This document shows, piece by piece, positions 4,132 to 64,000 of a stretch of 64,000 bases of DNA. The DNA is taken from NCBI RefSeq assembly GCF_036507355.1, contig NZ_AP027877.1. The stretch is one strand, 5' to 3'. This stretch comes from Escherichia coli (GTDB lineage Bacteria; Pseudomonadota; Gammaproteobacteria; Enterobacterales; Enterobacteriaceae). The translations under genes and the position numbers were made by a program. Below the pieces are notes generated by a model. The model ran no database searches and had not been told where the DNA came from. It saw only the letters and a list, made by a program, of their open reading frames with translations. Every line of letters begins with the position of its first letter. The stretch's first letter is position 1.

Positions 4132-6981
4132 TTGAAATACCTTGCTTCTTTTCGTACAACCCTGAAAGCCTCGCGCTACATGTTCAGAGCATTGGCGTTA
4201 GTGCTCTGGCTGTTGATTGCTTTTTCATCCGTTTTTTACATCGTTAATGCGTTACATCAGCGAGAATCGGAAATTCGTCAGGAATTTAATCTGAGTTCCG
4301 ATCAGGCTCAGCGCTTTATTCAACGCACCTCTGATGTGATGAAAGAGCTGAAGTACATCGCCGAAAATCGCTTATCGGCAGAAAACGGTGTGCTTTCCCC
4401 GCGTGGACGAGAAACGCAGGCGGATGTGCCTGCGTTTGAACCGCTGTTTGCCGACTCTGATTGTTCCGCAATGAGTAACACCTGGCGAGGTTCTCTGGAG
4501 TCATTGGCGTGGTTTATGCGCTACTGGCGCGATAATTTTTCTGCGGCTTACGATCTCAACCGGGTATTTTTAATCGGCAGCGATAACCTCTGCATGGCCA
4601 ATTTCGGTCTGCGTGATATGCCAGTGGAACGCGATACCGCGTTGAAAGCGTTGCATGAACGCATCAATAAATATCGAAATGCACCACAAGATGATAGCGG
4701 CAGTAACCTCTACTGGATCAGCGAAGGTCCGCGCCCTGGCGTCGGGTATTTTTACGCGTTGACGCCAGTTTATCTGGCGAACCGGTTGCAGGCGCTTTTG
4801 GGTGTCGAGCAGACCATCCGGATGGAGAATTTTTTCTTACCTGGTACGTTGCCGATGGGGGTTACCATTCTTGATGAAAATGGTCATACCCTGATTTCGC
4901 TTACCGGACCAGAAAGTAAAATTAAGGGCGATCCTCGCTGGATGCAGGAACGCTCCTGGTTTGGCTATACGGAAGGGTTCCGGGAGCTGGTGCTGAAGAA
5001 AAATCTGCCACCCTCATCGCTAAGCATCGTGTATTCGGTGCCGGTTGATAAGGTGCTGGAACGCATTCGCATGTTGATCCTTAACGCAATTTTGCTGAAT
5101 GTGCTTGCCGGAGCTGCATTGTTTACTCTCGCGCGGATGTACGAGCGACGTATTTTCATTCCGGCGGAAAGCGACGCCCTGCGACTGGAAGAACATGAGC
5201 AGTTCAATCGCAAGATTGTCGCCTCCGCGCCAGTGGGTATCTGCATTTTGCGTACCGCTGATGGCGTCAATATTTTAAGTAACGAACTGGCGCATACCTA
5301 TCTCAATATGCTTACGCATGAGGACCGCCAACGACTGACACAAATTATCTGTGGGCAGCAGGTCAATTTTGTTGATGTCCTGACCAGCAACAATACCAAT
5401 CTGCAAATCAGCTTCGTCCATTCGCGCTATCGTAATGAAAACGTGGCCATTTGTGTGCTGGTGGATGTTTCTTCGCGCGTGAAGATGGAAGAGTCGTTGC
5501 AGGAGATGGCACAAGCAGCGGAACAGGCGAGCCAGTCAAAATCGATGTTCCTTGCCACCGTCAGTCATGAGCTGCGAACGCCGCTGTATGGCATTATCGG
5601 TAACCTGGATCTTTTGCAAACCAAAGAGTTACCGAAAGGCGTCGATCGTCTGGTGACGGCAATGAACAACTCTTCCAGCCTGTTGTTGAAAATTATCAGC
5701 GATATTCTCGATTTCTCGAAGATTGAATCGGAACAGTTGAAGATCGAACCGCGTGAGTTTTCACCGCGTGAAGTGATGAACCACATCACCGCCAACTATT
5801 TACCGCTGGTGGTACGCAAGCAGTTAGGCTTGTACTGCTTTATTGAACCGGATGTGCCAGTGGCCTTAAATGGCGACCCGATGCGTTTACAGCAGGTCAT
5901 CTCCAACCTGTTGAGTAACGCCATAAAATTCACCGATACCGGCTGTATAGTTTTGCATGTCCGCGCTGATGGCGATTATCTCTCTATCCGTGTTCGCGAT
6001 ACCGGCGTGGGGATTCCGGCGAAAGAAGTGGTGCGCTTGTTTGATCCCTTCTTCCAGGTCGGAACGGGCGTACAGCGAAACTTCCAGGGGACCGGTCTGG
6101 GTCTGGCGATTTGTGAAAAACTGATCAGCATGATGGACGGCGATATCTCGGTAGATTCAGAACCGGGAATGGGCAGCCAGTTTACCGTGCGTATTCCGTT
6201 GTACGGCGCTCAGTACCCGCAGAAAAAAGGCGTGGAAGGGTTGAGTGGTAAACGCTGCTGGCTGGCGGTCCGCAATGCGTCGCTCTGTCAGTTCCTGGAA
6301 AACAGTTTGCAGCGCAGCGGCATCGTCGTAACAACATACGAAGGGCAGGAACCGACTCCCGAAGATGTGTTAATCACTGACGAGGTAGTGAGTAAAAAAT
6401 GGCAGGGCAGAGCGGTAGTGACCTTCTGTCGTCGACATATTGGTATTCCGCTGGAGAAAGCGCCAGGGGAGTGGGTACACAGTGTGGCTGCCCCGCATGA
6501 GCTACCGGCATTGTTGGCGCGTATTTATTTGATCGAGATGGAGAGCGACGATCCTGCTAACGCTCTGCCGTCGACGGACAAAGCGGTCAGCGATAATGAC
6601 GATATGATGATTCTGGTCGTGGATGATCATCCGATTAACCGACGTCTGCTGGCAGATCAGTTGGGATCGTTGGGCTATCAATGTAAAACCGCGAATGATG
6701 GCGTCGATGCGCTTAATGTACTTAGCAAGAATCATATTGATATCGTGCTTAGCGACGTCAACATGCCAAATATGGATGGTTACCGCTTGACGCAACGCAT
6801 TCGTCAGTTGGGACTGACGTTGCCGGTAATCGGAGTAACTGCTAATGCGTTGGCTGAAGAGAAGCAGCGGTGTCTGGAGTCCGGTATGGACAGCTGCCTC
6901 TCGAAGCCGGTAACGCTGGATGTGATAAAACAGACGCTGACGGTATATGCCGAGAGGGTCAGGAAATCGCGGGAATCGTAG
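4132..6981 (+). CDS. rcsC: hybrid sensor histidine kinase RcsC (949 aa)
   Basis: ORF track; HisKA H-box (SHELRTPL), HATPase and C-terminal receiver domain; convergent with rcsB. Confidence 0.93.
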   Translation: MKYLASFRTTLKASRYMFRALALVLWLLIAFSSVFYIVNALHQRESEIRQEFNLSSDQAQRFIQRTSDVMKELKYIAENRLSAENGVLSPRGRETQADVPAFEPLFADSDCSAMSNTWRGSLESLAWFMRYWRDNFSAAYDLNRVFLIGSDNLCMANFGLRDMPVERDTALKALHERINKYRNAPQDDSGSNLYWISEGPRPGVGYFYALTPVYLANRLQALLGVEQTIRMENFFLPGTLPMGVTILDENGHTLISLTGPESKIKGDPRWMQERSWFGYTEGFRELVLKKNLPPSSLSIVYSVPVDKVLERIRMLILNAILLNVLAGAALFTLARMYERRIFIPAESDALRLEEHEQFNRKIVASAPVGICILRTADGVNILSNELAHTYLNMLTHEDRQRLTQIICGQQVNFVDVLTSNNTNLQISFVHSRYRNENVAICVLVDVSSRVKMEESLQEMAQAAEQASQSKSMFLATVSHELRTPLYGIIGNLDLLQTKELPKGVDRLVTAMNNSSSLLLKIISDILDFSKIESEQLKIEPREFSPREVMNHITANYLPLVVRKQLGLYCFIEPDVPVALNGDPMRLQQVISNLLSNAIKFTDTGCIVLHVRADGDYLSIRVRDTGVGIPAKEVVRLFDPFFQVGTGVQRNFQGTGLGLAICEKLISMMDGDISVDSEPGMGSQFTVRIPLYGAQYPQKKGVEGLSGKRCWLAVRNASLCQFLENSLQRSGIVVTTYEGQEPTPEDVLITDEVVSKKWQGRAVVTFCRRHIGIPLEKAPGEWVHSVAAPHELPALLARIYLIEMESDDPANALPSTDKAVSDNDDMMILVVDDHPINRRLLADQLGSLGYQCKTANDGVDALNVLSKNHIDIVLSDVNMPNMDGYRLTQRIRQLGLTLPVIGVTANALAEEKQRCLESGMDSCLSKPVTLDVIKQTLTVYAERVRKSRES

Positions 6982-46711: not shown

Positions 46712-47737
46712 CTACACCGCCTTATTAGGATCAAATGCGTCGCGGACGGCTTCACCAATAAAGATCAGCAAAGACAATAATATCGCCACCGACAAGAAGG
46801 CGGTGATCCCAAGCCACGGAGCCTGAAGGTTATTTTTCCCTTGTAACAGCAGTTCACCGAGTGACGGTGAACCGAGCGGCAGACCGAAGCCGAGGAAATC
46901 GAGTGAGGTCAGGGTGGTAATCGAACTACATAAAATAAACGGTAAAAAGGTGAGGGTCGCGACCATGGCATTTGGCAACATATGACGCAGGATGATACTG
47001 CGATCGCTGACGCCAAGCGCCTGCGCCGCACGAATGTAGTCGAAATTACGGGTACGTAAAAACTCCGCCCGCACCACGCCGACCAGGCTCATCCAGCCAA
47101 ACAAGACAGTAATTGCCAGCAGCCACCAGAAGTTAGGCTGTACGACGCTGGAAAGTAAAATAATCAAAAACAGCGTCGGCATCCCCGACCATACTTCAAT
47201 AAAGCGTTGCCCCCAGAGATCGACTTTACCGCCGTAATAGCCTTGTAGCGCCCCCGCCAGCACGCCCATCACGCTGGAACAGAGAGTCAGCATCAGGCCA
47301 AACAGAACCGAGATCCGCGTGCCATAGAGAATACGTGCCAGCACATCGCCGCCGTTGGCATCCGTTCCCAGCCAGTTTTGCCGGGAAGGTGGGGAAGGGA
47401 AGGGCTTATCGGTAGCAAAGTTGATACTGGTAGCACCAAAGCGAATCGGTGCCCACAGTACCCAGCCGTTATTTTCCAGCCGCTCTTTCAGCCACGGGTC
47501 CTGATAATCAGCCTTACTTGCCAACGGGCCGCCAAAATCGCTTTCGCTGTAGTTTTTCAACAACGGGAAATACCAACTGCCGTCATAACGCACCAGCAAC
47601 GGTTTATCGTTGGCGATAAGTTCAGAACATAAACTCAAACCAAACAAGACGAGGAAAATCCATAACGACCAGTAGCCGCGACGGTTATGACGAAAACGCG
47701 CCCAACGGGCCTGGTTGACGGGGCTGAGTCGCGACAT
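46712..47737 (-). CDS. yejE: oligopeptide/microcin C ABC transporter permease YejE (341 aa)
   Basis: ORF track. Confidence 0.92.
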   Translation of the reverse strand: MSRLSPVNQARWARFRHNRRGYWSLWIFLVLFGLSLCSELIANDKPLLVRYDGSWYFPLLKNYSESDFGGPLASKADYQDPWLKERLENNGWVLWAPIRFGATSINFATDKPFPSPPSRQNWLGTDANGGDVLARILYGTRISVLFGLMLTLCSSVMGVLAGALQGYYGGKVDLWGQRFIEVWSGMPTLFLIILLSSVVQPNFWWLLAITVLFGWMSLVGVVRAEFLRTRNFDYIRAAQALGVSDRSIILRHMLPNAMVATLTFLPFILCSSITTLTSLDFLGFGLPLGSPSLGELLLQGKNNLQAPWLGITAFLSVAILLSLLIFIGEAVRDAFDPNKAV

Positions 47738-48831
47738 TAACGTCCCTCAAAATCTATACGCGGATCGACCAGCGTATAGCTGATATCACTGACAATATTC
47801 AGCAGCAGGCCAATCAGGGTGAAAATATACAAGGTACCAAACATTACAGGATAATCGCGCGAGACGGTCGCTTCGTAGCCCAGTAAGCCAAGACCATTGA
47901 GTGAAAACATCACCTCAATCAGCAGCGAGCCGGTAAAAAACATGCTGATAAACGTCGCCGGAAAACCGGCAATCACCAGCAGCATGGCGTTGCGGAACAC
48001 ATGTTTCCAGAGAATATTTTTTTCACTTACCCCTTTCGCACGCGCAGTCACCACGTATTGCTTGCGCACTTCATCAAGGAATGAGTTTTTGGTCAGCATG
48101 GTCAGCGCCGCAAAGCCACCAATCACTGTCGCCAGCACCGGCAGCGTGATATGACACAGATAATCGGTGATTTTCTGATACCACGGCAGCGAATCAAAGT
48201 TAGCGGAAACCAGGCCGCGTAGAGGGAACAGGTCGAAATAGCTGCCGCCTGCGAAGAAGACAATCAGCAGGATGGCAAACAAAAAGGCCGGAATAGCGTA
48301 GCCGATGATGATAAATGCGCTACTCCAGACGTCAAAGCGGCTCCCATTATAAACAGCTTTGCGAATGCCTAACGGAATCGACACCAGATAGATAATCAGC
48401 GTGCTCCACAATCCGAGGATGATGGAAACCGGCAGACTGTCTTTAATCAGCGTCAGCACCGAGGCGCTGCGAAACAGGCTATCGCCAAAATCAAAGCGGA
48501 TATAGTCCCAGAGCATTTTGAAGTAACGTTCGTGGATCGGCTTATCGAAACCGTAGCGATGAGTGATCTCGGCGATCACTTCTGGATCTAATCCGCGTCC
48601 GCCACGGTAATTACTGTCGCTGATATTACCGACGCCCGTTTGCGCATGGCTGGCGCGAACGCCTTCACCGCCTGCGCCGGGTAATACTCCGGCATTACCA
48701 AACTCAATGGCGGCGATGGCCTGGTCGACCGGACCGCCAGGCGCAATTTGCACGATGAAAAAGTTGATAGTGATAATCGCCCATAACGTTGGGATCACCA
48801 GCAACAGACGGCGAATCAGATAAGCGCCCAT
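47737..48831 (-). CDS. yejB: oligopeptide/microcin C ABC transporter permease YejB (364 aa)
   Basis: ORF track; 1-nt overlap with yejE. Confidence 0.92.
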
Positions 48832-61599: not shown

Positions 61600-63291
61600 A
61601 TGAAAACGCTGCTGATTATTGACGCTAATCTCGGTCAGGCACGCGCCTATATGGCGAAGACCCTGCTGGGCGCGGCGGCGCGAAAAGCAAAACTGGAAAT
61701 CATCGACAATCCGAACGACGCAGAAATGGCGATTGTTCTCGGTGATTCCATCCCGAATGACAGCGCGCTGAACGGTAAAAATGTCTGGCTGGGCGATATT
61801 TCCCGGGCAGTTGCGCACCCTGAGCTGTTCCTGAGTGAAGCCAAAGGCCATGCGAAACCTTACACTGCGCCGGTCGCTGCGACAGCACCGGTTGCCGCCA
61901 GCGGTCCGAAACGCGTAGTTGCGGTGACTGCTTGCCCGACTGGCGTAGCACACACCTTTATGGCGGCTGAAGCCATTGAAACCGAAGCGAAAAAACGTGG
62001 CTGGTGGGTGAAAGTTGAAACCCGTGGTTCTGTTGGTGCGGGTAATGCAATCACCCCCGAAGAAGTAGCCGCAGCGGATCTGGTGATTGTGGCGGCAGAT
62101 ATCGAAGTGGATCTGGCGAAATTTGCTGGTAAACCGATGTATCGTACCTCTACCGGTCTGGCGCTGAAGAAAACCGCGCAGGAACTGGATAAAGCGGTTG
62201 CTGAAGCAACGCCGTATGAACCGGCGGGCAAAGCTCAAACGGCGACCTCTGAAGGTAAGAAAGAGAGTGCAGGCGCATACCGTCACTTGCTGACGGGCGT
62301 CTCTTACATGCTGCCGATGGTCGTTGCAGGTGGTCTGTGTATCGCGCTTTCTTTTGCTTTTGGTATCGAAGCGTTTAAAGAGCCGGGTACGTTGGCAGCG
62401 GCGCTGATGCAGATTGGTGGTGGTTCAGCCTTTGCGCTGATGGTGCCGGTACTGGCAGGTTACATTGCCTTCTCCATTGCCGATCGTCCGGGTCTCACGC
62501 CGGGTCTGATTGGCGGTATGCTGGCGGTCAGCACCGGTTCTGGCTTCATTGGCGGTATTATTGCGGGCTTCCTGGCTGGTTACATTGCGAAGTTAATCAG
62601 TACGCAACTGAAACTGCCACAGAGTATGGAGGCGCTGAAACCGATCCTGATCATTCCGCTAATTTCCAGTCTGGTGGTCGGTCTGGCGATGATCTACCTG
62701 ATCGGTAAACCGGTTGCTGGCATTCTCGAAGGGTTGACTCACTGGCTGCAGACCATGGGGACTGCGAATGCGGTTCTGCTGGGGGCGATCCTCGGTGGCA
62801 TGATGTGTACTGACATGGGCGGTCCGGTAAATAAAGCAGCGTACGCATTCGGTGTGGGTCTGCTGAGTACTCAAACCTATGGCCCGATGGCGGCGATTAT
62901 GGCGGCAGGTATGGTGCCACCGCTGGCAATGGGTCTGGCAACAATGGTGGCGCGTCGCAAATTCGACAAAGCGCAGCAGGAAGGTGGCAAAGCCGCTCTG
63001 GTTCTTGGTCTGTGCTTTATTTCGGAAGGTGCAATTCCGTTTGCTGCTCGTGATCCGATGCGTGTGCTGCCGTGCTGTATCGTGGGTGGGGCGCTGACTG
63101 GCGCAATCTCAATGGCGATTGGTGCGAAACTGATGGCACCGCACGGTGGTCTGTTTGTTCTGCTGATCCCTGGCGCTATTACGCCGGTACTGGGTTACCT
63201 GGTAGCAATTATTGCCGGTACGCTGGTGGCGGGTTTGGCCTATGCCTTCCTGAAACGTCCGGAAGTGGACGCAGTAGCGAAAGCCGCGTAA
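61600..63291 (+). CDS. fruA: fructose PTS IIB'BC component FruA (563 aa)
   Basis: ORF track; duplicated IIB domains with CPTG, then IIC membrane domain. Confidence 0.93.
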   Translation: MKTLLIIDANLGQARAYMAKTLLGAAARKAKLEIIDNPNDAEMAIVLGDSIPNDSALNGKNVWLGDISRAVAHPELFLSEAKGHAKPYTAPVAATAPVAASGPKRVVAVTACPTGVAHTFMAAEAIETEAKKRGWWVKVETRGSVGAGNAITPEEVAAADLVIVAADIEVDLAKFAGKPMYRTSTGLALKKTAQELDKAVAEATPYEPAGKAQTATSEGKKESAGAYRHLLTGVSYMLPMVVAGGLCIALSFAFGIEAFKEPGTLAAALMQIGGGSAFALMVPVLAGYIAFSIADRPGLTPGLIGGMLAVSTGSGFIGGIIAGFLAGYIAKLISTQLKLPQSMEALKPILIIPLISSLVVGLAMIYLIGKPVAGILEGLTHWLQTMGTANAVLLGAILGGMMCTDMGGPVNKAAYAFGVGLLSTQTYGPMAAIMAAGMVPPLAMGLATMVARRKFDKAQQEGGKAALVLGLCFISEGAIPFAARDPMRVLPCCIVGGALTGAISMAIGAKLMAPHGGLFVLLIPGAITPVLGYLVAIIAGTLVAGLAYAFLKRPEVDAVAKAA

Positions 63292-63447
63292 TAAAAGGTG
63301 TGTTACAGGGCAGAATTTTACTGCCCTGTATCATTGGATGAGCGCAAAGAGAATGACCGGTTTGTGAATGTAATTTTATGAATTTAAATGGTTTTATCTT
63401 TCAGTAGAAACCTGAAACGTTCATCAAACACTAAGGTTATTTCCTCA

Positions 63448-63475
63448 AGGGCAGATTCTTTTCTGCCCTTTTTTA
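63448..63475 (+). terminator. rho-independent terminator after fruA (AAGGGCAG-ATTCTTTT-CTGCCCTT then TTTTT)
   Basis: Direct reading; preceded by a second hairpin with the same GGGCAG/CTGCCC core at 63306-63328. Confidence 0.75.
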
Positions 63476-63714
63476 GTGTTCATGTTCTGTGCATCCCGTC
63501 ACAAATTCCTCGCTTTTGTAATTCTGGCATTTAATCGCATTTTGTGAGCCTGCTCAAATCTGCCCGCTTTGCCTCTCTGGCGGCAATTTACTTTACGTAA
63601 AACATGCATACTATGAGCACATGTTTAAATATGAACACATGTTTAAACTGTCTTTGCAGTATCTATATTCTTGTGGATTGACAGGGTTGGTAATTTTTTA
63701 CCAGAGGACGTGCT

Positions 63715-64000
63715 ATGCGCGAAAAGGATTATGTCGTAATTATAGGCTCGGCGAATATTGATGTCGCCGGATATTCACATGAATCATTAAATTATGCGGA
63801 TTCAAATCCAGGTAAAATAAAATTTACGCCTGGTGGGGTAGGGCGCAATATTGCACAAAACCTGGCGTTGCTGGGTAATAAAGCCTGGCTACTGAGCGCC
63901 GTAGGCAGTGATTTTTATGGCCAATCGCTGCTAACGCAAACCAATCAATCTGGCGTTTATGTCGATAAATGCCTGATTGTGCCGGGAGAAAATACGTCGA
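63715..64000 (+). CDS. psuK: pseudouridine kinase PsuK (YeiC), 3' end cut by window edge
   Basis: ATG at 63715; translation MREKDYVVIIGSANIDVAGY... with PfkB-family GG motif (TPGGVGRN). Confidence 0.85.
   Translation, partial: MREKDYVVIIGSANIDVAGYSHESLNYADSNPGKIKFTPGGVGRNIAQNLALLGNKAWLLSAVGSDFYGQSLLTQTNQSGVYVDKCLIVPGENTS

Follow-up and report, generated by a model that had tools for sequence, protein, structure and literature searches.

The tandem 18-bp repeat that precedes psuK in Escherichia coli is two dyad-symmetric sites placed side by side. We propose, with somewhat better than even confidence, that these sites are adjacent operators, O1 and O2, on the start region of psuKGT, and that they are most likely bound by YeiI acting as a pseudouridine-responsive repressor, a reading drawn from the comparison of sequences. 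The repeat itself is an object of an ordinary kind, an operator pair; the family of its regulator would be new if confirmed. None of the papers searched describes a regulator of psuKGT, an operator for it or a start that has been mapped, and YeiI figures there as uncharacterised, as of unknown function or as a hypothetical transcription factor. A single-base change in the psuK promoter sweeps repeatedly when E. coli K-12 colonises mice and arises also in long-term stationary phase, and the psu genes are manipulated for industrial pseudouridine production.

Anatomy of the repeat

Unit 1 (TATGAGCACATGTTTAAA, 63612-63629) and unit 2 (TATGAACACATGTTTAAA, 63630-63647) abut and agree at 17 of 18 positions. 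Tandem Repeats Finder describes the array with period 18, 2.0 copies, 94% matches and a score of 65, and it is the sole tandem array with a score of at least 50 in the window, that is, the whole 64-kb stretch of E. coli DNA that was analysed. Searched with up to 3 mismatches, the unit pattern matches the window only at the two repeat units, against 0.05 matches expected from shuffles. The earlier note, made from the letters of this DNA, had given the repeat with these coordinates and this identity and had pointed out the small palindromes ACATGT and TTTAAA in both units, and all of this is confirmed. An extra exact GAACACATGTTT at 47995-48006 lies inside a long minus-strand ORF (47737-48831), and chance suffices to account for it.

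The placement given in the same note, 68-103 nt upstream of the psuK ATG (63715) and downstream of a fruA terminator, also holds. RefSeq annotation of identical or near-identical E. coli loci gives the order fruB-fruK-fruA, with fruA ending at 63291, a spacer of 423 nt, and psuK, the pseudouridine kinase gene that is first in psuK-psuG-psuT and whose 5' part occupies 63715-64000 on the plus strand. The upstream boundary of the psuK control region is a terminator-like hairpin after fruA at 63447-63476 on the plus strand (GGGCAGA-loop-TCTGCCC, a 9-pair stem and a T-run), which is conserved in the alignment. Two near-identical hairpins of this form in fact follow fruA, at 63305-63329 and 63447-63470, only the second with a T-run; they flank a conserved AT-rich stretch of about 115 nt, and Klebsiella and Buttiauxella have a single hairpin. 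A B2-type E. coli allele (NZ_CP023853.1) carries a REP-like sequence in the fruA-psuK spacer.

Each unit, taken here as a candidate operator, contains a core palindrome. In O1 (unit 1) it is GAGCA-CA-TGTTT at 63615-63626, with its centre at 63620.5 on the predicted transcription start (63619-63622), and in O2 (unit 2) it is GAACA-CA-TGTTT at 63633-63644, with its centre at 63638.5, about +18. A small ORF whose ATG lies in unit 1 and which overlaps the psuK start (63621-63761, 46 aa, MFKYEHMFK...) was set aside, being without a Shine-Dalgarno sequence and not conserved in other genera.

Copy number and alleles in E. coli

The earlier note had suggested comparing E. coli genomes for one versus two copies and had considered a slippage duplication that alters promoter spacing. 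Of 5426 complete E. coli genomes, 4223 contain a match to a 111-nt query with the repeat at its centre. Identity is 95% or more in every case, and in 4217 the match covers at least 80% of the query. With one unit or three, an identity of at most 84% or a split match would be expected; none of the 4223 genomes, all carrying what we call the class 1 allele, has one unit or three. In the other ~1200 genomes the psuK promoter has a second allele, similar to that of E. albertii, with better hexamers (TTTACA / TATTAT) and with units (TATGAACATGTGTTTAAA and TCTGAACACATGCTCTAA) that are identical at 12 of 18 positions. The two-unit arrangement is universal in E. coli, and, as the comparison of genera below makes plain, the two-site layout long predates this species; slippage as the source of a spacing variant finds no support here.

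Near-identity of the units (17/18) is limited to E. coli class 1, E. whittamii and the cryptic clades, with 10-13 of 18 positions identical elsewhere, and this lineage-limited identity means that a homogenising event (conversion, or duplication with replacement) did occur there. Yet that the repeat as a whole is a neutral slippage duplication without function is hardly credible, given an ancient layout whose position is invariant across taxa, the complete lack of copy-number variation, and a 111-nt region at least 95% identical in 4223 genomes. As a separate observation, E. coli has two deep haplotypes of the yeiI-psuK region, with yeiI about 81% identical in 2060 genomes and more than 95% identical in 3362; set against the promoter-allele split of 4223 to 1200, this indicates recombination breakpoints inside the region.

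Paired sites across genera

We compared the psuK regions of other species and genera together with further taxa found through PsuK homologues. In 16 taxa with a short PsuK (Escherichia alleles, species and clades, five Citrobacter, Raoultella, two Buttiauxella, Klebsiella oxytoca and Brenneria) the layout is identical, and reads from 5' to 3' a CRP-like TGTGA-N6-TCnnn, a 28-nt spacer (44 bp from start to start), TTTAC(T/A), 16 nt and TAnnAT; the first site, (A/G)A(A/G)CA-NN-TGTTY, begins at the base after TAnnAT, and the second, (A/G)AACA-NN-TGYTY, follows 18 bp on. The cross-genus alignment retains neither the sequence past the second site nor that between the conserved blocks. Dyad symmetry within each site and conservation above the flanks across species are thus both present: the AACA and TG arms are constant, the central dinucleotide varies (CA, TG, TA, CG, GG, TC), and the 12-bp palindrome is perfect in O2 of E. 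albertii (GAACATATGTTC). Each psuK locus holds the paired-site pattern once; the rest of the roughly 170 kb of compared loci is free of it, and the 64-kb window has no second match to it even with one mismatch allowed.

A tandem transcription-factor site, or psu operator, was among the options of the earlier note, and it gains support from the spacing of the sites and their position relative to the promoter, both kept from Escherichia to Brenneria, as well as from the psuK genes with a fused helix-turn-helix (HTH) described below. ARG boxes of ArgR are two 18-bp elements, TNTGAAT-WWWW-ATTCANW, with 2-3 bp between them; ArgR-type boxes are not found at the repeat, where the units abut with no spacer and the box positions T7 and A12 are invariant C and G. 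More widely, none of the operator types considered as leads (ArgR, DeoR, GlpR, CytR, Cra, KdgR, Zur, FNR, RutR and FabR) seems to agree with the spacing and with the invariant bases at once. The yeiE coding region contains one perfect single site, AAACAGTTGTTC (NC_000913.3 2249367-2249378), 2.3 kb upstream of yeiI, where 0.02-0.04 would be expected by chance in the 5.8-kb locus.

Could the repeat act mainly as RNA, as a 5'-terminal stem-loop of the psuK leader that tunes mRNA stability or translation? The predicted leader (63619-63730) folds at -30.6 kcal/mol with z = -3.2, the two units form a 5'-end hairpin of 3 + 11 pairs with one bulged base, and RNAalifold also gives an O1-O2 helix. Two adjacent copies of a palindrome can, however, always pair, which makes such a hairpin automatic. 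The paired bases are kept as sequence (pairs 8-12/19-23 are invariant) and not by compensatory change, the pairing register differs between alleles, the class 1 allele breaks the consensus helix at two pairs (CA, AC), and the right half of O2, unpaired in the helix, still keeps its TG. Nor does Rfam 15 give a match that reaches the gathering score; the three matches seen are at chance level and all lie upstream of the repeat. We therefore regard a primarily RNA-borne function as quite improbable. A different element of the leader, a small hairpin at 63687-63704 on the plus strand (UUGGUAA-UUUU-UUACCAG) that abuts the Shine-Dalgarno GAGGA (63704-63708), does show a compensatory change, at pair 81/91 (CG:6, UA:2, UG:1), and it could affect psuK translation or mRNA stability. 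Its arms read GGTAA/TTACC in E. coli and GGCAA/TTGCC in Citrobacter.

The psuK promoter

Two hexamers on the plus strand, TTTACT (63587-63592) and, 16 nt past it, TACTAT (63609-63614), are assigned here as the -35 and -10 elements of the psuK promoter; the last three bases of TACTAT are the first three of unit 1. TTTACT is conserved in 19 taxa and TAnnAT stands at the invariant 16-nt spacing in 16, and Yersinia, Serratia and Photorhabdus are among the genera in which the hexamers keep their sequence and spacing. Each hexamer matches that of sigma-70 at four of six positions, and because these matches are weak the pair is not listed in a simple promoter scan; by its sequence the psuK promoter is intrinsically weak. 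Upstream lies a proximal CRP-like site (TGTGAGCCTGCTCAAA, TGTGA-GCCTGC-TCAAA, 63543-63558, centre 63550.5), an element that all 16 taxa with a short PsuK have 44 bp ahead of the -35 hexamer; its centre is 39 bp from that of the -35 hexamer and at about -70.5 from the predicted start near 63621, a class I position. A distal CRP-like site, TGTGC-N6-TCACA (63488-63503), is centred 55 bp upstream of the proximal one and partly conserved in other genera, and may contribute as well. Given a weak promoter and a CRP-like site at about -70.5, psuK transcription probably depends on cAMP-CRP. In the available RpoD-alone SELEX rows of PMC3946193 the yeiH>nfo and nfo>yeiI spacers are present and the fruA-psuK spacer is absent, and the names psuK, yeiC and fruA are absent from the available text of that paper; the missing spacer fits a factor-dependent psuK promoter.

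Independent mouse-gut populations have repeatedly acquired one and the same base change between psuK and fruA (PMC9509342, PMC7518454, PMC10340439), where it is given as 2257444 A->C (PMC9509342, PMC7518454), and in long-term stationary-phase cultures it is entered by breseq as 'intergenic (-126/+297)', changed to C (PMC7858067). The authors of the evolution studies place the SNP in the psuK promoter region and describe effects on growth and psuK expression. Position -126 corresponds to 2259422 of NC_000913.3, where the plus strand has A, and to T63589 of the window. The mouse-gut coordinate 2257444 equals 2259422 minus 1978, which we take to be the offset between two MG1655 reference versions, and this value agrees with the fruA end at 2259719 and with the psuG coordinate. 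In the psuK sense the change is T->G, turning TTTACT into TTGACT 23 bp upstream of the repeat. A recurrent adaptive SNP that would improve the -35 hexamer supports the assignment of this promoter.

With this promoter the core of O1, one base past the -10 hexamer in all 16 taxa, falls on the predicted start and the core of O2 at about +13 to +24, so that the paired sites would span about -7 to +24, the position of a repressor. Sites that lie past the -10 hexamer and over the predicted start are unlikely to serve an activator, the other option that the earlier note had entertained. An activator role could be recovered if the repeat overlapped an alternative promoter, with TTTAAA (63642-63647) as -35, a 16-nt spacer and TATATT (63664-63669) as -10, and the units served as upstream or -35 activator sites. 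This promoter is the only plus-strand match of the simple scan (9/12), but the scan gave 2 sites where 1.4 are expected by chance, neither TATATT nor the TTTAAA of unit 2 is present outside the E. coli class 1 clade (in other genera TCTAAT and unrelated sequence stand there), and the adaptive SNP improves the other -35, TTTACT; we consider it very unlikely. Two further candidates were rejected: a sigma-54 promoter in the Citrobacter TGGCAA-N5-TTGCC hairpin, which is too near the ATG and for which E. coli has no GC element, and an inverted repeat around the -10, TAAAACATG-N13-CATGTTTAA, whose apparent compensatory change in Citrobacter is lost in Buttiauxella and C. werkmanii.

The sites and the HTH-PfkB proteins

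Those PsuK orthologues whose identity is about 60% or lower have a length of 355-372 aa and carry an N-terminal winged HTH (Pfam HTH_24/HTH_11) before the PfkB kinase. Such fused HTH-PsuK proteins are found in Yersinia, Serratia, Photorhabdus, Xenorhabdus, Pasteurella (Pasteurellaceae), Aliivibrio and Shewanella, their genes heading psuK-psuG(-psuT) operons. The short PsuK is of 311-313 aa, and in Klebsiella and Brenneria a separate gene of 362 aa with HTH_24 and PfkB lies tail-to-tail after psuT; Brenneria keeps the psuKGT-yeiI arrangement though its genomic context is otherwise unrelated. Citrobacter and Buttiauxella likewise have an HTH_24+PfkB gene tail-to-tail with psuT, its partial ORFs sharing 76-78% identity with YeiI of E. 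coli. The genes yeiI and psuT of E. coli itself are separated by nupX-rihB-yeiL alone. YeiL, of the CRP/FNR family and encoded beside psuT in E. coli, was considered as the regulator and rejected: nupX-rihB-yeiL is missing in Klebsiella, Brenneria, Citrobacter and Buttiauxella, all of which have the sites. Source annotations name the HTH-PfkB genes 'sugar kinase' or 'winged helix-turn-helix transcriptional regulator'.

In Yersinia, Serratia and Photorhabdus the fused psuK is preceded by TTTACT and, after 16 nt, ATAAAA, followed by a pair of AAAC(A/T/G)-NN-TG... sites at a spacing of 18 bp. Pasteurella and Aliivibrio have a pair as well, spaced by 18 bp in the former and by 19 bp in the latter, where it lies just before the Shine-Dalgarno sequence; neither has a recognisable TTTACT. 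Shewanella has a single perfect CCAAACA-AA-TGTTTGG and no clean pair, and in Xenorhabdus the sites are degenerate, again with no clean pair. Aeromonas jandaei and one Pasteurellaceae MAG, which have a short psuK and no HTH-PfkB gene within 6 kb, show no paired sites. The sites thus co-occur with HTH-PfkB genes across four orders and in two architectures, fused and separate, in a small sample whose controls were covered within 6 kb.

Two other features of the fused loci may be recorded. The annotated ATG of the Yersinia and Serratia HTH-PsuK lies inside O1 (L020 and L018, 4995-5030), and since the alignment to YeiI begins at Met10, the codon at which translation starts probably lies 27 nt further on. 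In Yersinia, Photorhabdus and Serratia there is also a third palindrome, a longer one (AACCAAACA-NN-TGTTnGGTT), 242-250 bp upstream of O1, and Xenorhabdus, where O1 is undefined, has a similar one at about -280 from the ATG (L020 4749-4768; L018 ~4741-4760; L025 3721-3740; L026 3712-3731 for the four genera together). This palindrome may be an auxiliary operator for DNA looping; E. coli has no clear equivalent of it.

O1 and O2 could instead be operators of a regulator other than YeiI, whether an unlinked factor of the TetR, DeoR or GntR type or a global factor. The link of YeiI to the repeat DNA comes from sequence comparison, and the evolution experiments, as far as their available tables go, list no yeiI mutations. 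The RutR box is TTGACCA-NN-TGGTCAA (7-2-7), a geometry that the sites resemble, and the junction of the units, TGTT-N8-AACA, is similar to a DeoR operator. In the compared taxa, however, the bases are GAACA and never the GACCA of RutR, and the inner 6-8 bases of the junction are not conserved as DeoR would have it. The sites, moreover, track the HTH-PfkB protein across four orders and two architectures and are absent without such a gene nearby, and we judge a different regulator unlikely, though it is the rival to which we give most weight.

YeiI as a candidate repressor

YeiI (b2160), a protein of 362 aa, joins a winged HTH at its N-terminus to a PfkB domain that is a paralogue of PsuK, and its gene is present in 5422 of 5426 E. 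coli genomes. Residues 1-48 match Pfam HTH_24 at 41.2 bits (cut-off 21.9, E = 1.2e-10). The HTH of YeiI (residues 1-55) is 69-71% identical to the fused HTH, and the recognition-helix region is almost equal in the two groups (ISRSRVAAHIMDL in YeiI, ISRSGVAGHIMNL in the fused proteins), whereas the kinase-like part of YeiI is 44-48% identical to the kinase part of HTH-PsuK, for which PsuK itself reaches 54-61%. This pattern of identities fits a bifunctional ancestor that was duplicated, one copy (PsuK) losing the HTH and the other (YeiI) keeping it. A structure search found no HTH-PfkB protein whose structure has been solved.

The two subunits of the E. coli PsuK dimer meet at the small beta-domain, and the quaternary structure of the dimer shifts on pseudouridine binding (PMC9061257). 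Three residues read pseudouridine, namely Asn143, Lys170 and, from the partner subunit, Ser30, and Asp256 is the proposed catalytic base (PMC9061257). Their equivalents in YeiI, S83, N196, K223 and D309, are invariant columns of our alignment, and because YeiI keeps the residues by which PsuK contacts pseudouridine, we propose pseudouridine or its 5'-phosphate as the inducer. All three aligned YeiI orthologues read FGADD (residues 305-309) where PsuK and HTH-PsuK read TGAGD, that is, GADD for the catalytic GAGD of PfkB proteins, a hint that its catalysis is altered or gone, and YeiI may be a pseudokinase.

Our wider proposal, to which we give about an even chance, is that YeiI is a pseudouridine-sensing one-component regulator built on the PfkB (ribokinase) fold. 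A self-repressing HTH-kinase ancestor would have been duplicated in the Enterobacteriaceae, the copy without HTH becoming PsuK and the copy with GADD a dedicated repressor acting at the repeat. From the binding of YeiI onward we infer the following steps. By analogy with dimeric PsuK, one YeiI dimer would occupy each palindrome, and dimers over about -7 to +24 would block RNA polymerase. Pseudouridine or its 5'-phosphate would alter the geometry of the dimer and shift its two HTHs, the DNA would be released and the operon induced; after release of YeiI, cAMP-CRP would drive the weak psuK promoter.

A question remains, what speaks against YeiI as a plain repressor? The available tables of the gut and stationary-phase evolution experiments contain no yeiI mutations, the psu locus being always hit by the same promoter SNP; other catabolic operons in these experiments were opened when their repressors (frlR, srlR, dgoR) were lost. 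Mutation should easily reach a simple repressor, so the lack of yeiI mutations suggests either that promoter strength is limiting or that YeiI is not a plain repressor; it may also be that pseudouridine already induces the operon in the gut. The geometry of the sites counts against our proposal as well. With centres 18 bp (~1.7 helical turns) apart, two dimers would face different sides of the helix, an uncommon arrangement for cooperative binding, and half-site centres 6-7 bp apart are tight for an HTH dimer.

If the proposal is true, the HTH-PfkB proteins are a previously undescribed family of kinase-fold transcription factors, a function is found for the E. coli y-gene yeiI at a locus that recurrently adapts in the gut, and the psu genes offer a clear case of a fused enzyme-regulator splitting into enzyme and regulator. 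The adaptive SNP in the -35 hexamer would be explained by a weak, probably CRP-dependent promoter with two candidate operators on its start site. The reading predicts that YeiI represses, that pseudouridine or its phosphate induces, and that the operators depend on defined bases.

Comparison with known systems

Among the closest parallels to the proposed YeiI in design are NagC and Mlc, the ROK repressors of E. coli, in which an N-terminal winged HTH is joined to a sensor domain of sugar-kinase fold that is paralogous to a real kinase. They share with our model of YeiI the HTH-kinase-fold design, palindromic promoter operators through which a catabolic or transport operon is repressed, and cAMP-CRP alongside. 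They differ in fold, that of ROK proteins being actin-like ATPase and that of YeiI PfkB/ribokinase, and in their operators, which are about 23 bp long and often act by looping between distant sites, whereas psuK has two 12-bp cores 18 bp apart. The HTH-PsuK proteins of Yersinia, Serratia and Photorhabdus, encoded behind paired sites, are like the bifunctional enzyme-repressors BirA, NadR and PutA, and the analogy suggests an enzyme that represses its own operon. In E. coli, by contrast, the roles appear, as far as sequence tells, to be split between PsuK, without HTH, and YeiI, with HTH and with GADD for GAGD.

As regards the operators, GlpR of the DeoR family offers at glpD a similar arrangement, with adjacent repeated operators over -10 to about +20 of a CRP-dependent catabolic promoter; its units, however, are of 20 bp, its half-sites (TGTTCG...CGAACA) have the opposite orientation and the regulator is of another family. 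The boxes of Lrp/AsnC (FFRP) proteins, such as TGAAA-WWW-TTTCA, are like the psuK sites in being short 5-N-5 palindromes with close half-sites, several side by side, and the HTH_24/AsnC-type HTH gives weak to clear Pfam matches in YeiI; yet the effector domain is RAM/ACT in the one and PfkB in the other, and box spacing and sequence differ. Finally, the CytR/CRP promoters deoP2, cdd and udp, like that of psuK, belong to nucleoside catabolism and have CRP-like sites, of which psuK has two, 55 bp apart. They differ in that psuK has no CytR octamers of the GTTGCATT type, that the sequence between its CRP-like sites is not conserved across genera, and that its conserved CRP-like site would lie near -70.5 and not at -41.5.
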